A stretch of 64,000 nucleotides of DNA from Methanoregula sp. (GCA_028679075.1 JAJRCF010000011.1:9217-73216), one strand, 5' to 3'. Numbered from the stretch's first letter, positions 32,254 through 58,639 are shown. A program made the numbers and translations. Notes: a model not told the origin generated them from the letters alone.

Positions 32254-32366
32254 TGCTGCGAGAGGGTTACGATCCCCCGATCTCCAGATCTCTCGAAGCG
32301 TGAACGCGGAATTGGTGTTCAACAACCCTATGAGTCTGGCGCCCTAACCAGCTAGGCCACCGCAGC
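32254..32366 (-). tRNA. tRNA-Met(CAT), elongator type, with a 39-nt intron at 37/38 (32290-32328)
   Basis: Acceptor GCTGCGG/TCGCAGC, D arm GCCT/GGGC, anticodon arm CCAGA-CTCATA|A-TCTGG split by the intron. T-loop is atypical (ATCGTAA). Confidence 0.88.
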
Positions 32367-51216: not shown

Positions 51217-52551
51217 ATGGATGTCGAGGAGTATGCCCGCAGGGGACTCGCAGAAGGTACTGAAGAAAAAACCCTGCAGGAAAAGCTGGCTGATCACATT
51301 GTCCGGATGAAAAATGCCAGCCCCTCCTATGCATCAGCGTTCGCCCGCGCCGTTATTGAAGAAGTGAAGAACACTCAAGGGTTGTCCGGCGACTTTTTTA
51401 CCTTTGAACCGGCCGGCGTCCGGATGGGCGAGTTCGGCGTGGGTTCCCGGGGAAAAGGGGATTTTTTTGCCCACCGCCAGATCGCCCGCATCATCGGGAA
51501 GACGTCTGCCTCCGTTGGTGTTGACGAGATGGACGATGCCGGTGCGGTCTGTGCCGGGGGAAAATACATCATTTGCACGGTCGACGGGATGCACTCGCGC
51601 CTTTCGGATTTTCCGTACCTTGCCGGTTTCCACGTGACCCGCGCAACGCTCCGTGACGCGTACGTGATGGGGGCAAAACCGATCATGCTCTTCTCGGATA
51701 TCCACGTTGCCGATGACGGCGATGTGGCAAAGATCTTTGATTATACCGCAGGTATCACGACCGTTGGCGAGGCAATGGACGTGCCGCTTGTCACCGGATC
51801 GACCCTGCGCATTGGTGGCGACATGGTGCTTGGCAGCCGGCTCACCGGGTGTGTCGGTGCCGTGGGCGTGGCCGAACACCTGACTGCCCGGAAGTCCACG
51901 CAGCCGGGGGATGTCCTCCTGATGACGGAAGGTGCCGGGGGCGGGACGATTGCGACAGCCGCGATCTATTCAGGGTTCCCGGAAGTTGTCGAAGAAACAA
52001 TCAACCTGAATTTCCTCATGGCCTGCGAGGCGCTGATGAAGAGCAGCGTCTTTACGCAGATCCACGCGATGACGGATGTGACGAACGGGGGGCTCCGCGG
52101 CGATGCGTTCGAGATGGCCGAGACTGCCGGCTGCCGGATCGTCATTGACGAGTCAGATATCGGCAGCCTGGTCCAGTCCCAGGTGAAGGAGATGCTCGAA
52201 GCGCTGAAGATTGATTACCTTGGCGTTTCGCTTGACTCCCTGCTCGTGGTTGCACCGGCCGGAGCTGCCGATGAGATCTGCCGCGTGATCCGGTCGGCCG
52301 GTGTCACGATGAAGCAGGTCGGGCACGTGGAAGAGGGGAAGCCGGAAGCGGTGCTCCGTGCCGGTGGTAAAGACCATGACTTCTCGCCCCGGTTCCGTGA
52401 ATCCGCGTACACTCCGGTGAAGAAGGTGGCGGATACGGAGATGCGTGACTTTGAGGAGATGAAAGCGGGAGTGGTGCGTGCCTCTGAAGCGGCGATACAG
52501 AAAAAGCAGCGGGTGCTGAGCCGGCTGCGGGCCGGGAAGGGCGGGTTTTAA
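51217..52551 (+). CDS. AIR-synthase-related protein (PurM/HypE/SelD superfamily)
   Basis: MGEFGVGSRG-x-GDF, DDAG, VDGMHSRLS, HAMTDVTNGG-x-RGD and LGVSLDSL. Confidence 0.8.
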   Translation: MDVEEYARRGLAEGTEEKTLQEKLADHIVRMKNASPSYASAFARAVIEEVKNTQGLSGDFFTFEPAGVRMGEFGVGSRGKGDFFAHRQIARIIGKTSASVGVDEMDDAGAVCAGGKYIICTVDGMHSRLSDFPYLAGFHVTRATLRDAYVMGAKPIMLFSDIHVADDGDVAKIFDYTAGITTVGEAMDVPLVTGSTLRIGGDMVLGSRLTGCVGAVGVAEHLTARKSTQPGDVLLMTEGAGGGTIATAAIYSGFPEVVEETINLNFLMACEALMKSSVFTQIHAMTDVTNGGLRGDAFEMAETAGCRIVIDESDIGSLVQSQVKEMLEALKIDYLGVSLDSLLVVAPAGAADEICRVIRSAGVTMKQVGHVEEGKPEAVLRAGGKDHDFSPRFRESAYTPVKKVADTEMRDFEEMKAGVVRASEAAIQKKQRVLSRLRAGKGGF

Positions 52552-52637
52552 AAAATATTTTTTGGGCCACGTGCGAAAAAAATTTTTGTGAACGTAAATT
52601 TTTTTAGAAATTTTTTGATACAGTGCCTGCTCTCACA

Positions 52638-52910
52638 ATTTATTTTTCCTGAGGAGTAAGGGGTCTCATGAATTATTTTTGATGAGGGGGTAGGGGGGTC
52701 ACGCAAATTTTTTAATGAGGGGTACCCCCCCTCAGTAAAAATTTTTCGTGAGGGTCTGCCCCTGTTTTCGAAACGGTTTACGACGGGACGCTGTGTTTTT
52801 GCGTGGGGAAAATCGTGAGGGGTAGGGGATGTGAGCGAAAAAATCTGATGAGGGGAGTGGGGGCTCAGGCAAATATTCTGGTGAGGGGTCGGGGGGATTG
52901 GAAACCCTGT
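52638..52910 (+). repeat. Degenerate 33-bp tandem array (A/T-tract followed by TGAGGGGTAGGGG)
   Basis: TGAGG at 52650, 52683, 52716, 52749, 52816, 52849 and 52882; one degenerate slot near 52782. Confidence 0.85.
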
Positions 52911-52982
52911 CCCACACCGGTATACGACGGAATCCAGCCCCGTAACCTCCTCTTAGATAGTGCAGATCCGGACTCATGCAAA

Positions 52983-53078
52983 ATACCTGTCACAGGTCAC
53001 TGACCTGTCCGATGCACCTGACCTGTCACGGGTCAGATACCTGTGACAGGTCAACTGACCCGTATTAGGGAGCCCTAA
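52983..53078. repeat. Palindromic 9-bp lattice of TGACCTGT sites followed by TTAGGG-AG-CCCTAA
   Basis: Eight TGACCTGT-like cores in alternating orientation; palindrome centres at 52991, 53000, 53027, 53045 and about 53054. Confidence 0.88.
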
Positions 53079-53615
53079 AACTGCGATCCAAAACAGGGGT
53101 TCTTTTCGGTTTCCAGGACCATAGCCTGTTTGAAAAACGATCGGCCATCCAATTGCGTCTATTAGCCTATATTATATTCTTCGACGGAGAAAATCCAATC
53201 CGGGCCCGTATCGGGTGGGAAAATCTCCTTATTGTATCGTTTTTTGGGAATTAGACACGTTTGAGTGGGGTCAGGCTGGTTCCCCGTTATCGGTCTCCGA
53301 CGGTGAGTGGAGTTTGTGAGAGGGTATCTTCCCGGGAGTATTCCGGAAGGATGATCTCCGACGTGAAATTTGCTTTTACGTCAGGGATGATCTTACAGGC
53401 CCCCTGTTTGTGAAAAACCACGAATGTGTTTCTGACAGTGGGGGATGTTTTAGTGGGTGGAGTGTTGGGGGTGTGGGATGAGTGGACCGGAATATTTTCC
53501 GGGCCGGGAAATTTTTTGTAAAAAAGATTTAGGAAAAAAATCTAAAAAAAATTTAGAGAAAATTTCTCAATGGAAAATTTATTGAACCGTGCTAGGTTGT
53601 ATTGATCATGAAAAT

Positions 53616-53725
53616 TGTGATGAACGGCCGCCGCCCCGAAGGGCGCCCCGCGGCGGATCAGTGACGAAAAGCAAAATACTCATTGCCCCGCCGCGCCTCG
53701 GAGAGGCCCTGAGGCGGGAGGCCTC
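53616..53725. repeat. Structured GC-rich dispersed repeat, copy 1
   Basis: CCCCGCGGCGGATCA (53646-53660) and TGCCCCGCCGCGCCTCGGAGAGGCCCTGAGGCGGG (53684-53718) are shared with copy 2. Confidence 0.85.
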
Positions 53726-53794
53726 ACAATTTTTTATGGTTTCGGTGTGAACTTGATCTGTTGATACCCGTTTCCGCAGGGTTAAAATTCCCGG

Positions 53795-54523
53795 TTATTC
53801 CCGGGGCTTCTTAGCACTCACAAAAATATTATACGCCAGTTGCGGCACCCGCTTCTCGACAAACGGCTCGATCTTGCTGGCAAGGTTGTACAGCGGGTCG
53901 ATCATGTCGATGTGGGCAAACGAGCACCACTTGACCGCAATGTCCGAGAACCCGGCCTGGTTGAACAGGTCGTTCATCTCGTCTTCATTGTAATAATGCT
54001 CGCCGAAATCCTTCATGACCACGTGCCTGACATTCATCTTCTCGCTGATCTGGTACAGTGCCGGGATGCCCCGGGTCAGGAGTTTTTTCCCAAGCGTGCA
54101 GATCGCAATCGCACCCCCGGGCCGCAGCACGCGATACGACTCCGACAACATCGTCTCCGGGTCCCTGACATAACTGAACACCAGCAGGCTGGAGACGGCA
54201 TCGAACGAATTGTTGCGGAACGGTAACGTCTCGCCATTCCCCTCGGCAAACTCACACCCGGCGCAACGGTGGCGCGCCCGTGCGGTCATCTTCCGGCTGA
54301 TATCGAGGCCGACCGCGGTCCCCCCGTGGCGGAGATACTTCTCGACAAAGAGACCTGTCCCGCACCCGATATCGAGGAGGTCGCCCTTTTCCGGCAGGGC
54401 TTTGATGAGATAATTGCTGATGTGGGTGTGGTAGTTCCGGCCGCGGGGATGATCGTAGTGGTGGTCGTACGTATCCGCAACGCTGTCATAATGGTCGCGG
54501 ATCTTCTCCTGCCTGACGGTCAC
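53795..54523 (-). CDS. Class I SAM-dependent methyltransferase (UbiE-like)
   Basis: LLDIGCGTG, GLDIS, LPFRNNSFDAV and RVLRPGG. Confidence 0.9.
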   Translation of the reverse strand: MTVRQEKIRDHYDSVADTYDHHYDHPRGRNYHTHISNYLIKALPEKGDLLDIGCGTGLFVEKYLRHGGTAVGLDISRKMTARARHRCAGCEFAEGNGETLPFRNNSFDAVSSLLVFSYVRDPETMLSESYRVLRPGGAIAICTLGKKLLTRGIPALYQISEKMNVRHVVMKDFGEHYYNEDEMNDLFNQAGFSDIAVKWCSFAHIDMIDPLYNLASKIEPFVEKRVPQLAYNIFVSAKKPRE

Positions 54524-55515
54524 GGGAAGGTCTCCTGTATTCCTGCGGTGAGTGCGCCGATCTGGATGTATTCGTTATTTGCATGCCGCATCCGGTATTC
54601 GGCATCGGCAAGGGCGATAGCAAGTGCAGGATGGTTGTACTCACGTTTCAGGACTTTCCTGATCTCGGAGAGGACCTCGCTGCCGGAAAGGCCGGAATCG
54701 ATCATCAGGGATTCGAGGCGACGGGTCGCGACCCGGACATCCCCTTCCTTGAGCGCGGCAATGGCCGATGTGGCAATGTTCCCGGTCTCTGACTGCGAAA
54801 TGGCAAACAGGTCCTGGCATTTCCCGGTCTCGAACGCGACCTGCGTGAGGAGGATCGCACGCCGCATATCGCCCGCGGAGGCCTGCACGATCAGGTCAAG
54901 GTCATCATCGGAACAGGTTGTGTTCTCCGGGTTCTCCCGGTCCTTGATCATCCGGAGATGCGAAAGCACGATCCCCTGATCGACCGGGGCAAAGAACAAC
55001 GGCAGGCAGCGCGATGTGATCGCCGGGATGATCGCGCTCTGGTTCGTTGTCGTGAAGATGAAGCGGCAGGTGTTGCTGGTCTGCTCCATGATCCGGCGCA
55101 GTGCCTGCTGGGCATCGCGGGTCAGGGTATGCGCATCCTCAAAGACCAGGAGCTTGAACTCTGCATCAAGCGGGCGCAGCGAGGCATACCACCTGATGAT
55201 GTACTTGAAATTCGTGATCAGGGACTGGCTCTTCTGGTACAGGTGGGTGTACCGCTCGTCCTGTTCGAGCAGGGCTTTTCCCTGGAGGAAGATGTCCGCG
55301 GTCTGGAACACGGTGGTGTTCTGTTCCCAGTTCTCCCCGTACAGTTCCTTTGCAAAGCATTCGATCGCAATGCTCTTCCCGGTGCCGTGCGGCCCCGAAA
55401 GGATCAGGTGAGGTACGTTCTTGGAGCCGGCAAACGAGGTGAGGTGGCGCATGACTGCGTCCTGTCCCAGGATCTCCTGTGATGAAGACGGCCGGTATTT
55501 TTCAGTCCAGAGCAT
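54520..55515 (-). CDS. rfcS: Replication factor C small subunit (divergent S2-type paralog)
   Basis: WTEKYRP, PHLILSGPHGTGKS, AQQALRRIME and ITSRC; Walker B reads FEDAH. Confidence 0.88.
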   Translation of the reverse strand: MLWTEKYRPSSSQEILGQDAVMRHLTSFAGSKNVPHLILSGPHGTGKSIAIECFAKELYGENWEQNTTVFQTADIFLQGKALLEQDERYTHLYQKSQSLITNFKYIIRWYASLRPLDAEFKLLVFEDAHTLTRDAQQALRRIMEQTSNTCRFIFTTTNQSAIIPAITSRCLPLFFAPVDQGIVLSHLRMIKDRENPENTTCSDDDLDLIVQASAGDMRRAILLTQVAFETGKCQDLFAISQSETGNIATSAIAALKEGDVRVATRRLESLMIDSGLSGSEVLSEIRKVLKREYNHPALAIALADAEYRMRHANNEYIQIGALTAGIQETFP

Positions 55516-56233
55516 GGGACAACCTCACTGTCATCTCACGTATTGCCTCTGACAAAAGATAATGATTATCGGTTGCGGAGAGGAGCCGTTCCCGGTCCGC
55601 GGCCGACAGTTCCCGGCACGCCCGGGTGATCTCCGGCAGCGCCCGGGTCAGTTCATCGACAATGGTGAGGGTCGCCCGTTGTGCCGTGCGGGACAGCGGG
55701 TTGAGGTCGACTGCAATCACCTTCTTTCCCATGGCAACCAGCGCCTCGCACCGGTCGCCGTCTTCTAAGGGAACGATGATGACATCGGCAGAGAACATTC
55801 CCTCCCTCCGGCACCACGCGCGGTCGTGGGAGAGGGGGAGCAACCGTTCGGCCTCACCGGAAAATACATCTGCCCCGGCATCCCGCAGGAGTTTCTCGAT
55901 CCGGGCAACGCGGTCTTCGGTCCGGTGGAAAAGGTTCACTTCCACGAGTGCCCCGGATGCTTTCTGCAGTTCGGCAATTTCATGTGCAGCGAGGGCTGCC
56001 GTATTCCCGTTAACCGAGATGACCGGGCGTTGGGCAGTCATCAGCATTGCCGCGGCGGTCTGTTCTGCAAGGAGTGCACTTGGTGTCGTCCGTTCCCCAA
56101 TCAGGTAGTCAAAGGCCTCGCCCCGCCCGTGGGCAGTAAGGCCTTCCATTGCCACGATCCCCGATCTGGCACATTCCGCAAGGCGCTCGCGGGTGACGAG
56201 CGAGCGGTAGCGTGGGTGATCGGGCGGTATCAT
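55502..56233 (-). CDS. pps: 4-phosphopantoate--beta-alanine ligase (phosphopantothenate synthetase)
   Basis: IPPDHPRYRSL, AHGRGEAFDYL, SVNGN, VPLEDGDR and DLNPLSRT. Confidence 0.93.
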   Translation of the reverse strand: MIPPDHPRYRSLVTRERLAECARSGIVAMEGLTAHGRGEAFDYLIGERTTPSALLAEQTAAAMLMTAQRPVISVNGNTAALAAHEIAELQKASGALVEVNLFHRTEDRVARIEKLLRDAGADVFSGEAERLLPLSHDRAWCRREGMFSADVIIVPLEDGDRCEALVAMGKKVIAVDLNPLSRTAQRATLTIVDELTRALPEITRACRELSAADRERLLSATDNHYLLSEAIREMTVRLSHALD

Positions 56234-57096
56234 GGTCTCTCCCCGGTGATGCGTGCGCCGGTCCGGGCCACGGCACATTCGTACACCTCGCCGAACTTCG
56301 CGAGGAGATCCCGGGCATCGCGGCCGTACGCGAATACGCCATTTCCGAGCATGGTCATGCTTGCGGGAATACCATGGGCCCCGCAGTGCTGGATGACCTC
56401 CCGGACTTGGCGGGTAACGAGCCCGCTGGCAACAGCAAACTCCTGTGAGATCCGGAAGAGATCGTCAATGTTTTTTGGCGACCTGCGGGGAAATGCGGAG
56501 GAGACTCGTTCCATCTGCTGCTGCGAGCCTAAGACTGACGGGGTGTGGATGGGCCCGAAACTTACTGCATATACGGATCCGGTCAGATCATACCGTCGCT
56601 GGATTGTGGCGTCGATACCCGGCCCTTTCCGGACAACCCAGCCCCCGCTCTGGCATGCGGCAACGTCCCCAAGACCGGTCCGGTGCATGACCTCTGCTTC
56701 ATGGGCAAGCAGGGCGATATCATGGGCGGTCAGGTCCAGGCCGTATAACCTGTCAAGGGCAGTCAGCGTGGCAAGCAGGGCTGCTGCCGAAAGCCCGAAC
56801 CCGGCGCCTATCGGGAGGTGGCATTCCGTGACCACCGATGCGGTGACGCCAAGCCGTTCCATGACCGATGAGAGCAGGGGGGAATCGCCCGCGTATTCGC
56901 TTCTCGTGCCGTTTGCATCCACGCGGTCCACGCGGATGGATGTCCTCCCGGCTTTTGTTACGGTGGCAGCAACACCTTTGTCAATGACAATCCCTGCACC
57001 AATGCTCCCGGTATCCGCTCTTGTCGTACCATTGACGCGTTTGAAATAGCCGGATATATGGCCGGGGCAAAAAGCGGTAACCGTTCCAGGTCTCAT
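56230..57096 (-). CDS. pok: Pantoate kinase (GHMP family)
   Basis: FCPGHISGYF, GSIGAG, PIGAGFGLSAA, AHEAEV-x3-TGLGDV and SMTMLGNGVF. Confidence 0.93.
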   Translation of the reverse strand: MRPGTVTAFCPGHISGYFKRVNGTTRADTGSIGAGIVIDKGVAATVTKAGRTSIRVDRVDANGTRSEYAGDSPLLSSVMERLGVTASVVTECHLPIGAGFGLSAAALLATLTALDRLYGLDLTAHDIALLAHEAEVMHRTGLGDVAACQSGGWVVRKGPGIDATIQRRYDLTGSVYAVSFGPIHTPSVLGSQQQMERVSSAFPRRSPKNIDDLFRISQEFAVASGLVTRQVREVIQHCGAHGIPASMTMLGNGVFAYGRDARDLLAKFGEVYECAVARTGARITGERP

Positions 57097-57225
57097 GGAT
57101 GTCCCATCGTGTAATAACCGTTGGTCTTTTTGGACTTTAAGGAATTGTAAAGAAAATAGATCAGAGTAAATGAGCAGGGATGATCAGATTATAATGAAGG
57201 AGGTTAGGATCCCCTGACCCCTATT

Positions 57226-57392
57226 ATGATTAACGCCGCCGCAGTCGAAGAATCCTCATGGATTCTTCTCTAGTCAATCCTCGCTGATGCGACGATTGCC
57301 TCCCCGCGGCGGATCAATTACCGTAATAATGATAAGAGATAAAACCGCCATGCCCCGCCGTGCCTCGGAGAGGCCCTGAGGCGGGGAGCTCT
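57226..57392. repeat. Structured GC-rich dispersed repeat, copy 2 (with extra internal hairpins)
   Basis: CCCCGCGGCGGATCA (57302-57316), a 35-nt motif at 57351-57385 (34/35 identical to copy 1), and the hairpin GAAGAATCC-TCAT-GGATTCTTC (57247-57268). Confidence 0.85.
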
Positions 57393-57475
57393 CGTATCAA
57401 ATTAGCATATTTTGGTTTTCTTGGCTCCAGTACGAACCATCAGCATTACGAGATTTAAAAAATAGCCATAATCCC

Positions 57476-58639
57476 TCAGGATTTACCATCGGACATGCGT
57501 TGGATCTCATCCCAGATTTTCCCGGCAACTTCCTCTTTTGTTCCGGTAATCTTACAGGATCCTTTGGACGTGAGCAGCTCGTAGTCCCCGGTGCGGCTGC
57601 CCATGGTCTCCGGGCGGTTCATTAACACCATCGAGACGCCCTTCTTAAGCATCGCCTTTGCCGGCCCCTCCGGCTTCCGGTCGATCTTGAACGCAACCGT
57701 GAATGGTGCGTATTCCTTCACCACTTTATCCAGCAGTTTCGGGAGCGGGGTGAGGTCGATCACCGCAGGCTTTCCGCTCTTAATCTTCCCCTCTTTCCGC
57801 TGCGGGGCAAAGTCCGAGATGGCTGCGGCGCTGATGTAGATGTCGGGCCCGCCCTGTGTTACAAGCTCGTTTCTTACCGCATCCCGCATCTCGCCCGCGG
57901 TCTCTGCACTCACGTTCGTCACGCAGGGAATGGTGTCCCCATGGACAATGGTCACGTCCGCGCCAAGCCGGAATGCCTGCAGGGCCAGTTCCCGCCCCAT
58001 CTGCCCGCTGGACCGGGTGGTCAGGACCCTGACATCATCAACCGGTTCGCGGCAGTGCCCGCTGGTGATGAGCACGCGTTTTCCGGCAAGCGGTTTTCCC
58101 GACACCGCCCGCTCGGACGCAAGAACGATCTCATCGATATCCGCAATCTTTGCCTTACCCTCTTCGATGCGGGGTGCAAGGACACCGATCCCCCAGCCCT
58201 CGAGCCGTGCGATATTTTCCGTCAGGGCCGGGTGCCGGAACATGCTGTGGTGCATGGCCGGGACGACCAGTACTGGCATGCCGCTCCCGATTGCGGTCGT
58301 GGCAAATGTCGTCACGGGTGTATCGTCAATCCCGCAGGCAATCTTGCTGATGGTATTTGCCGTGCAGGGTGCGATGAGGAGGAGGTCTGCGCTCCCGCCA
58401 TCCCCGCAGTAGGTCACGTGTTCCACCATGCCGGAGATCCGGGTGATGGCCGGACGGCCACAGGCATAGGTGATGGCATCGGGGGTAACGATGCCCGCAG
58501 CCGCATCGCTCATGACTGCCTGGACTTCAGCGCCCCGCCGCCGTAATGCATGGACCAGTCTCACCACTTCGACCGCGGCGATACTTCCCGTTACCGCTAC
58601 CACGACCTGTTTTCCGGCAAGGGTCTGTACGGGTGTCAT
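57476..58639 (-). CDS. coaBC: Phosphopantothenoylcysteine decarboxylase/ligase
   Basis: VTGSIAAVE, APCTANTISK, PAMHHSM, EEGKAK, VLITSG, RSSG-x-MG and AAISDF. Confidence 0.95.
   Translation of the reverse strand: MTPVQTLAGKQVVVAVTGSIAAVEVVRLVHALRRRGAEVQAVMSDAAAGIVTPDAITYACGRPAITRISGMVEHVTYCGDGGSADLLLIAPCTANTISKIACGIDDTPVTTFATTAIGSGMPVLVVPAMHHSMFRHPALTENIARLEGWGIGVLAPRIEEGKAKIADIDEIVLASERAVSGKPLAGKRVLITSGHCREPVDDVRVLTTRSSGQMGRELALQAFRLGADVTIVHGDTIPCVTNVSAETAGEMRDAVRNELVTQGGPDIYISAAAISDFAPQRKEGKIKSGKPAVIDLTPLPKLLDKVVKEYAPFTVAFKIDRKPEGPAKAMLKKGVSMVLMNRPETMGSRTGDYELLTSKGSCKITGTKEEVAGKIWDEIQRMSDGKS

Follow-up and report, generated by a model that had tools for sequence, protein, structure and literature searches.

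Two copies of a structured, GC-rich element lie in a 64,000-nucleotide stretch of the Methanoregula sp. assembly GCA_028679075.1 (JAJRCF010000011.1:9217-73216), which is referred to here as the window and is numbered from its first letter. A first-pass annotation made from the sequence alone had placed the copies at 53616-53725 and 57226-57392, and direct reading of the sequence finds both at these positions, on the + strand and with the same plan of stem, linker and hairpin. Each lies past the stop of a minus-strand gene, as had been noted, copy 1 being separated by 70 bp from the gene that ends at 53795 and copy 2 by 84 bp from the gene that ends at 57476, and copy 2 occupies the 379-bp gap (57097-57475) between coaBC and pok, two genes whose identities were confirmed with Pfam. 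The likeness of the two window copies is far beyond chance. It is likely that both are remnants of a family of non-autonomous DNA transposons, or MITEs (miniature inverted-repeat transposable elements), that is specific to Methanoregula and its close relatives, and that what attracted attention is the internal payload of these elements and not their ends.

Organisation of the two copies

The core positions given in the first-pass annotation stand, but its lengths do not, as each element is longer than was stated: copy 1 extends from a closing stem that begins at 53608 to the end of a conserved 3' extension at about 53781, and copy 2 from a degenerate hairpin at about 57197 to about 57467. The 5' strand of the closing stem of copy 1, ATGAAAATTGTGA (53608-53620, +), is the internal CCCATGAAAATC motif of the family and forms 13 bp with a partner at 53724-53737; the inverted pair CATGAAAATC / GATTTTCATG of this stem recurs in relatives and its inner pairs covary (helix 1 of the covariation analysis described below). 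Arm B of copy 1 (53621-53660, +) has a TGAT/ATCA stem (53618-53621 with 53657-53660, +) and an outer stem CCGCCGC/GCGGCGG (53628-53634 with 53650-53656, +) that encloses a CCC-GAA-GGG inner hairpin (53635-53643) and is accompanied by a conserved 3' bulge, CGCCCC; the arm B stem was recovered independently by RNAalifold. An A-rich linker of 25 nt (53661-53685, +), a degenerate remnant of a variable hairpin arm, L, that reads ATTACC...GGTAAT in intact relatives, leads to the 3' arm, hairpin C (53686-53719, +), which consists of an outer stem CCCCGCC/GGCGGG, an inner stem GCCTC/GAGGC and a GGA loop, with an internal loop, GY / CCTGA, that is invariant. Beyond it lie a tail and a subterminal right-end module (53720-53781, +), which includes the 3' strand of the closing stem and finishes with a decayed right terminal inverted repeat, CCCGTTTCCGCAGGG (53767-53781, +), to be compared with the family consensus GATTTTCATGGTTCGGGTGTGAAC..GTTCATGCCCGTTTCTCCAGAGC. 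The orthologue of copy 1 in another genome (G218) retains ATTTTCCACAGGGC at its right end.

Copy 2 starts with a degenerate 5' hairpin, H0, which reads GGAGGTTAGGATCCCCTGACCCCTA (57197-57224, +) where relatives read GATGGGGGCTGATGCCCCCATACCCCC and which is intact, as GATGGGGGTTGAGACCCCCATACCCCC, in the orthologue of copy 2 in the closest relative (L005). Its arm B (57225-57316, +) has the TGAT/ATCA stem at 57227-57230 with 57313-57316 (+) and the stem GCCGCCGC at 57235-57242 with GCGGCGG at 57306-57312, and the simple CCCGAAGGG hairpin of that arm is replaced by a two-hairpin cassette of 59 nt, cassette I (57243-57301, +). The linker of 36 nt (57317-57352, +) is a degenerate arm L that starts with ATTACCG and is 89% identical to that of the orthologue. 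Arm C and the tail together occupy 57353-57400 (+), arm C itself 57353-57386, and the tail, AGCTCTCGTATCA, closes against TGAT..ACG at 57227-57235. A decayed right-end module (57401-57467, +) was delimited by comparison with the consensus by eye, the similarity being weak and the end approximate; in the orthologue of a more distant relative (L007) the right terminal inverted repeat, read on the other strand, is GCTCTGTTGAAACA, with one mismatch. The near-identity of the two 3' hairpins that had been remarked upon is borne out by the sequence, a single base differing between the copies (C vs T, in the unpaired GY). When scored with a covariance model built from relatives, copy 1 gave 79.7 bits (53612-53732, E=1.2e-21) and copy 2 gave 60.4 bits (57284-57400, E=9.3e-16), and a 32-nt hairpin pattern found no match in a reversed-genome control.

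The family and its modules

The picture of an element with two copies proved too narrow, for dozens of copies exist. The collection of genomic copies that had been proposed, carried out with nhmmer from each copy together with motif scans, yielded about 28 composite elements in the source genome, of which 27 are intergenic and overlap no open reading frame (ORF) or gene call; the exact 3' hairpin occurs there four times, or six times when mismatches are allowed. The hairpin-C motif is present in nine of 15 other Methanoregula genomes, at between one and 23 copies each, and in one of 185 other genomes of the order, and it was found in at least 120 metagenome contigs. The core of copy 1 matches many loci in nearly all of the 40 genus genomes searched. 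An origin in a virus or plasmid was rejected for the lack of any match in IMG/VR, PLSDB or INPHARED, which were searched for viral, plasmid and phage relatives.

A limited set of modules makes up the copies, namely H0, A, B, L, C and D, and cassettes I and J. H0 is a 5' hairpin, GAUGGGGGCUGAUGCCCCCAUACCCCC in source-genome copies; the 5' arm may be B, with the GCCGCCGC...GCGGCGG stem seen in the window copies, or A, of the form ..CCCCCUCC-hairpin-GGAGUCGCUCGG..CCUCGCUGGGCAAG; L is the variable hairpin AUUACC...GGUAAU; and the 3' arm may be C (the window hairpin), D or a reverse-complemented B. Arms A, B or C may also hold two-hairpin cassettes, 45-60 nt in length. The modules are used in both orientations and convergent B/A composites occur. 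Gene calls made around the 28 copies with our own rough codon-usage model, on which the count of 27 intergenic copies also depends, show no clear bias of orientation: in 17 of the 28 the upstream gene shares the strand of the element, and in 17 of the 28 the gene downstream is convergent. Many copies lie 28-80 nt beyond a same-strand stop, or in the space that separates two convergent genes.

Comparison of orthologous copies is instructive as regards the cassettes. Cassette I of copy 2 is missing from the orthologue in the closest relative, whose arm B has a simple hairpin, and that orthologue carries a 53-nt two-hairpin cassette within hairpin C, which is plain in the window copy. Other copies contain cassette I as well, and it forms free arrays at other places in the genome. 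The cassettes within hairpin C are bordered by a repeated CCTCG and those within arm A by CTCG, as can be seen from the window copy (57353-57386) set against its orthologue in L005 and from the source-genome loci C1:229270, C1:105437, C1:168201 and C1:320461; these repeats could be a duplication made on insertion or could reflect template switching at a shared word. The payload is modular, arms A and B, the 3' arms C, D or reversed B and the cassettes being exchanged between copies, including orthologous copies of sister species. The free arrays, tandem or inverted, lie at C27:980-1280, C18:38480-38860, C6:1200-1600, C10:13680-13980 and C12:64440-64680 of the source genome; their unit of about 55-65 nt has the form GUCGAAG-hairpin-CUUCUCC-hairpin(UGAU loop)-UUCGAC, is closed by GUCGA/UCGAC and is also inserted in payload arms of the MITEs, for example at 57243-57301 in the window.

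Terminal repeats and target duplications

When metagenomic copies are aligned together with long flanks, the B-L-C core is seen to lie inside a larger unit. The order of this unit is a left end GCTCTG[G/T]AGAAAnCCTC, a GC-rich left module, GGATTTCCCATGAAAATC, an optional H0, B-L-C and the right end, the right side reading GATTTTCATGGTTCGGGTGTGAAC..GTTCATGCCCGTTTCT[C/A]CAGAGC. The terminal inverted repeats are about 12-17 bp long (left GCTCTG[G/T]AGAAA, right TTTCT[C/A]CAGAGC) and the two ends co-vary within an element, GGAG being found with CTCC and GTAG with CTAC. There are 34 repeat-bounded elements, ranging from 177 to 681 bp, and intact relatives, in metagenomes and in the source genome, are non-coding, intergenic and 220-680 bp long; full-length elements with both terminal repeats around hairpin C number 21, and 13 repeat-bounded elements lie in the source genome. 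At C5:96530-96874 of that genome H0-B stands directly behind the left repeat.

The target duplication is about 9 bp long and A/T-rich. At least seven of the nine flanking bases are identical in 56% of the 34 elements, as against 10% with shuffled flanks, and six elements have perfect 9/9 flanks where 0.2% would be expected. Such A/T-rich duplications fit insertion into terminator-like DNA past the ends of genes.

Arm A is found in four MITE copies of 307-514 bp in the source genome (C1:120887-121247, C1:197439-197952, C16:55154-55460 and C16:61791-62140), which share the terminal repeats and 9-bp duplications of the family. These four also share a stretch upstream that resembles the 3' end of a gene, and an omega-RNA of TnpB was considered and rejected, as there is no transposase ORF upstream and the stretch is itself part of the MITE. 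Eight further elements with the same ends, of 222-332 bp (e.g. C9:54465-54686 and C18:14868-15197), have unrelated interiors. From the occurrence of the same ends around unrelated interiors it appears that a single transposase system moves several payloads.

Filled and empty sites

The site between coaBC and pok is filled in the window and in two relatives. In the closest of these, L005, whose PoK is 89% identical, the element has the position and orientation of copy 2, and the more distant L007 has a diverged copy. In six others (L008, L057, L009, L010, L011 and L012) the gap is empty and measures 70-154 bp, and in Methanoculleus and Methanocorpusculum coaBC and pok abut. At the site of copy 1 a spacing of about 55-60 bp separates the convergent genes in most of the genus; G143, G233 and G231 have smaller fillings, with the element inside them. 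Given that relatives are bounded by terminal inverted repeats and show target duplications about 9 bp long, and that orthologous sites occur both filled and empty, the suggestion in the first-pass annotation that this was a MITE-like family is upheld.

The degree to which different parts of an insertion have been retained can be followed in the orthologues. When copy 1 is compared with its orthologue in G218 the closing stem and hairpin C are 92-94% identical and arm B 82%, the linker being the lowest part of the element at 64%, and the right-end module is 74% and the upstream sequence about 51% identical. For copy 2 and L005 the figures are 89-100% for the structural parts, 84-92% for the flanking non-coding DNA and 71% for H0. 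In G143 the identity of the flanking genes is about 74% and the flanks cannot be aligned, while arms B and C are nearly unchanged. Selection acting on the core could give such a pattern of conservation, and so could gene conversion or a hot spot at which insertion has been repeated.

Some further observations concern the coaBC-pok junction itself. In ten loci (L006, L013, L015, L017, L020, L031, L037, L038, L048 and L050) the matches to coaBC and pok are about 1.7-2.3 kb apart, a spacing which, in several Methanoregula metagenome-assembled genomes (MAGs), points to another insertion at the same junction. A conserved promoter-like CCTTAAAG box lies about 40 nt before the start of pok in all Methanoregula orthologues (57097-57160 in the window), and the coaBC stop is directly followed, on the gene strand, by a run of six T residues (57454-57459). 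Since pok has a promoter-like box of its own and coaBC is followed by this T run, the two genes are probably separate transcription units whether or not the insertion is present.

Folding and covariation of the core

The fold model comprises the closing stem, arm B with its outer stem and inner hairpin, and arm C with its outer and inner stems. It was assessed with 62 distinct sequences in an alignment that was itself fitted to the model and in which many copies are recent relatives; with that qualification 86.7% of cells pair, and 22 of the 30 pairs have changed on both sides. The covariation score of 0.169 exceeds that of shuffles (0.085, none of 500 reaching the observed value) and of slid partners (0.03-0.07). 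Covariation is clearest in the inner stem of C (U-A 21, C-G 17, G-C 5) and in two pairs of the closing stem. RNAalifold, applied to a plain MAFFT alignment that was not fitted to the model, recovered arms B and C with one covarying pair only. The conserved fold proposed in the first-pass annotation is thus supported by covariation, and the data support a core that folds as a closing stem with three arms, namely B (or A), a variable L and a near-invariant C, in which pairing is kept by compensatory changes between subfamilies.

As regards the level at which such selection might act, G-U mismatches are as frequent as A-C mismatches (84 vs 82 overall and 23 vs 29 in the best 28 copies), and selection at the RNA level or specific to one strand is therefore not visible. 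On the + strand there are GNRA loops (GAGA, GCGA, GUGA) in hairpin C, UUCG/UACG loops in arm A and a recurrent UGAU; the CGAA loop of arm B reads UUCG on the opposite strand, and the tetraloop classes are mixed between the strands.

A number of known RNAs and motifs were considered as candidates. Rfam 15 gave no relevant match at E values of up to 10 across 52900-57600, nor at up to E=1 over 20 further copies, the hits being chance hairpins only, and self-cleaving ribozymes, C/D and H/ACA small RNAs and riboswitches were rejected as no Rfam 15 match came near a gathering score. ARAGORN reported no tRNA-like gene at the elements. In an informal check by eye against their consensus features, none of the K-turn (C/D box), HDV-like, hammerhead, bulge-helix-bulge intron or GNRA-receptor motifs fitted the conserved loops. 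A guide RNA was rejected too, the variable linkers matching the rest of the genome over AT-rich stretches of 11-15 nt only. A literature search found nothing relevant to the B-L-C core.

Origin and possible function of the elements

The reading that is preferred here is that the window copies are, on the comparisons given above, old insertions shared with the nearest relative, in which the terminal repeats have decayed and the folded core has stayed intact. Movement would have been in trans, by a putative DDE-type transposase recognising the terminal repeats and cutting A/T-rich intergenic DNA, often that of terminators, with a 9-bp stagger; insertion into A/T-rich terminator DNA would explain the copies that lie just past the ends of genes. 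Our best guess as to the fold is that either the element itself would need it, or transcription from neighbouring genes would produce it as a stable RNA or a structure of the terminator type.

Several observations weigh against this reading. The two copies in the window are without intact terminal repeats or target duplications: no left repeat was found at up to three mismatches, no duplication was detectable and all that is left is the decayed right end at 53767-53781. With the ends of the window copies decayed, their origin as MITEs rests on homology to intact copies and on the terminal repeats of the orthologues, in which the right repeat of L007 has one mismatch, the left repeat of G143 one and the right repeat of G218 three. 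An autonomous element or transposase with these ends was not found in the source assembly, which is 90% complete and in 40 contigs, or in about 1.4 Mb of other loci, nor was a transposase ORF found between repeat pairs 0.8-3 kb apart, next to lone right ends or among multi-copy ORFs. As no partner enzyme was found, we infer the mobilising enzyme and the insertion sequence (IS) family to which it would belong; no known IS family emerged with an end that matches, which would have accounted for the elements differently. Furthermore, in the window and in distant orthologues alike, the core (arm B and hairpin C) has changed less than the terminal repeats; this is unexpected of a purely selfish MITE in decay and may be a sign that the core is under selection or that gene conversion takes place between copies. 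Lastly, AT-rich, promoter-like DNA precedes several copies and T-runs follow them, and some copies may be transcribed on their own.

Another proposal is that the B-L-C core is a functional RNA, either a family of genes for a small RNA or an element acting in cis on 3' ends, stability or termination, that was spread by MITEs and kept by the host; this is compatible with a MITE origin, and we regard it as fairly unlikely. Compensatory changes maintain four helices, the + strand presents GNRA loops in hairpin C and UUCG/UACG loops in arm A, the GY/CCUGA internal loop is invariant, and in old copies and distant orthologues the core has survived longer than the terminal repeats; to this may be added the position of many copies 28-80 nt past a same-strand stop or between convergent genes, and the A-tracts and T-tracts that flank the fold. 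Against these have to be set the equal frequency of G-U and A-C mismatches and the lack of bias in orientation relative to neighbouring genes, both window copies in fact being antisense to the genes nearest to them, together with the presence of UNCG-type loops on the opposite strand of arm B, the decay of H0 in copy 2 and linkers that have no convincing complementarity to other loci. A bolder form of the proposal, which we consider decidedly unlikely, is that the core is a novel structured RNA that would itself do something, whether as a scaffold for proteins, as a signal for processing or termination or as a catalyst, and that would ride on a MITE vehicle and be retained by the host after the ends decayed; the four-way junction with its three arms and invariant GY/CCUGA loop would then belong to a mobile family of non-coding RNA genes, with the cassettes at CTCG sites as a second layer of mobility. 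If the core does act as an RNA, this would be a rare case of a structured RNA spread by an archaeal DNA transposon.

Two other explanations are very improbable. The first-pass annotation had raised a REP-like family, with a TnpA-REP or IS200/IS605 enzyme behind it, and in that case the elements would be palindromes of the REP/BIME type or derivatives of IS200/IS605 (REPIN/PATE), moving as single-stranded DNA hairpins by means of a Y1 enzyme (RAYT/TnpA). The GC-rich, hairpin-forming, mosaic units used in both orientations, such as the reversed B that serves as a 3' arm and the convergent B/A composites, are what such a family would show, as are cassettes inserted after a fixed CTCG word, but both the enzyme and the ends speak against this explanation: no match to Y1_Tnp (PF01797) was found in the source genome, its single TnpB-like gene (C3:13732) has no family modules nearby, and terminal inverted repeats with 9-bp target duplications are not produced by Y1 transposition. 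The other idea is that the window copies are not a mobile repeat but part of a replication origin, a partition site or another chromosomal cis-element of the 1.24-kb gene-free block (52552-53794), and to this too we would give scarcely any credence. Copy 1 does end this block, which contains periodic arrays, palindromes and AT-rich DNA, but most of the genus is without the block and has its flanking genes some 55-60 bp apart, the sub-blocks and the element recur at many unrelated loci, and copy 2 is in a different context. In the source genome the sub-block at 52677-52888 recurs at C36:4399-4610 and C36:1809-2018 and that at about 52920-53108 at C36:1222-1467 and C1:13540-13693, and sub-blocks recur in relatives too. 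The block, which is confined to the lineage of the window, looks like a pile-up of several repeat families and not like an origin.

The MITE reading accounts for the 379-bp gap in an otherwise tight coenzyme A (CoA) cluster and for the end of the 1.24-kb gene-free block, and on this reading the copy in the CoA cluster is an insertion and should not be taken for a regulator of CoA biosynthesis. It also defines a MITE superfamily, with its ends, target duplication, payload modules and covariance model, for Methanoregula, a genus known mostly from MAGs, and a description of the family should be useful for annotation, for judging assembly breaks and for strain-level tracing in peat and wetland metagenomes.

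Comparison with known elements

The Correia elements of Neisseria and the ERIC/IRU elements of enterobacteria are prokaryotic MITEs with stable internal folds, and in a fold of the Correia/ERIC type compensatory changes preserve the pairing, while a transcript that includes the fold is affected by it. The Methanoregula elements resemble them in being small, non-coding, multi-copy and intergenic, with terminal inverted repeats, target duplications and both filled and empty sites, and they share with ERIC the occurrence of internal insertions at fixed positions. They differ in their archaeal host, in their ends, GCTCTGNAGAAA, in the 9-bp AT-rich duplication, in a multi-arm GC-rich interior in place of one long imperfect palindrome and in the several unrelated payloads carried by one set of ends. 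A prokaryotic MITE with a stable fold is of a known kind, and what is unusual here is a multi-arm, modular and strongly conserved payload that outlasts the ends.

The pneumococcal BOX elements and the BIMEs of E. coli are modular or mosaic intergenic repeats, likewise assembled from a few kinds of module, whose number and order vary, and forming stable hairpins. Unlike the Methanoregula family they lack such terminal inverted repeats or target duplications, and there is no similarity of sequence; BIMEs depend moreover on RAYT enzymes, whereas no Y1 enzyme (PF01797) was found in the source genome. Among archaea, the SM elements of Sulfolobus and the PATEs of Haloquadratum are MITEs or PATEs that are similarly non-autonomous and reside in intergenic DNA, but they come from different IS families, and PATEs derive from elements of the IS200/IS605 type and make no target duplication. 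Archaeal MITEs and PATEs are often missing from the IS complement of MAG assemblies. We know of no archaeal MITE or PATE that has been described with a B-L-C core, and to our knowledge the Methanoregula family has no known partner IS. Members of the IS903 group of the IS5 family make a 9-bp target duplication and have ends that begin GGCTTTGTTGAA, and the ends of the ISL3 family begin GGCTCTT; these resemble GCTCTGTTGAAA / GCTCTGTAGAAA over about 8-10 bases only, a resemblance that offers a possible lead.

Neighbouring genes and other features of the window

The genes around the two copies were identified with Pfam. Copy 1 is followed by a methyltransferase gene (53795-54523), and copy 2 lies between the gene for a pantoate kinase of the GHMP-kinase type (pok, 56230-57096) and that for CoaBC (57476-58639). 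A phosphopantothenate synthetase (55502-56278) and an AIR-synthase-like protein (51217-52551) are also encoded here, and RFC is among the neighbours confirmed in the same way. Within the gene-free block there is a long, near-perfect nested palindrome of TGACCTGT/ACAGGTCA units (52983-53053), for which Rfam gave, on both strands, only miRNA-like matches at the level of chance (27.5 bits vs a gathering score of 63). Elsewhere in the window, Rfam reports a 113-nt tRNA on the minus strand at 32254-32366 (45.6 bits) that was not reported by ARAGORN and that is probably an intron-containing archaeal tRNA.

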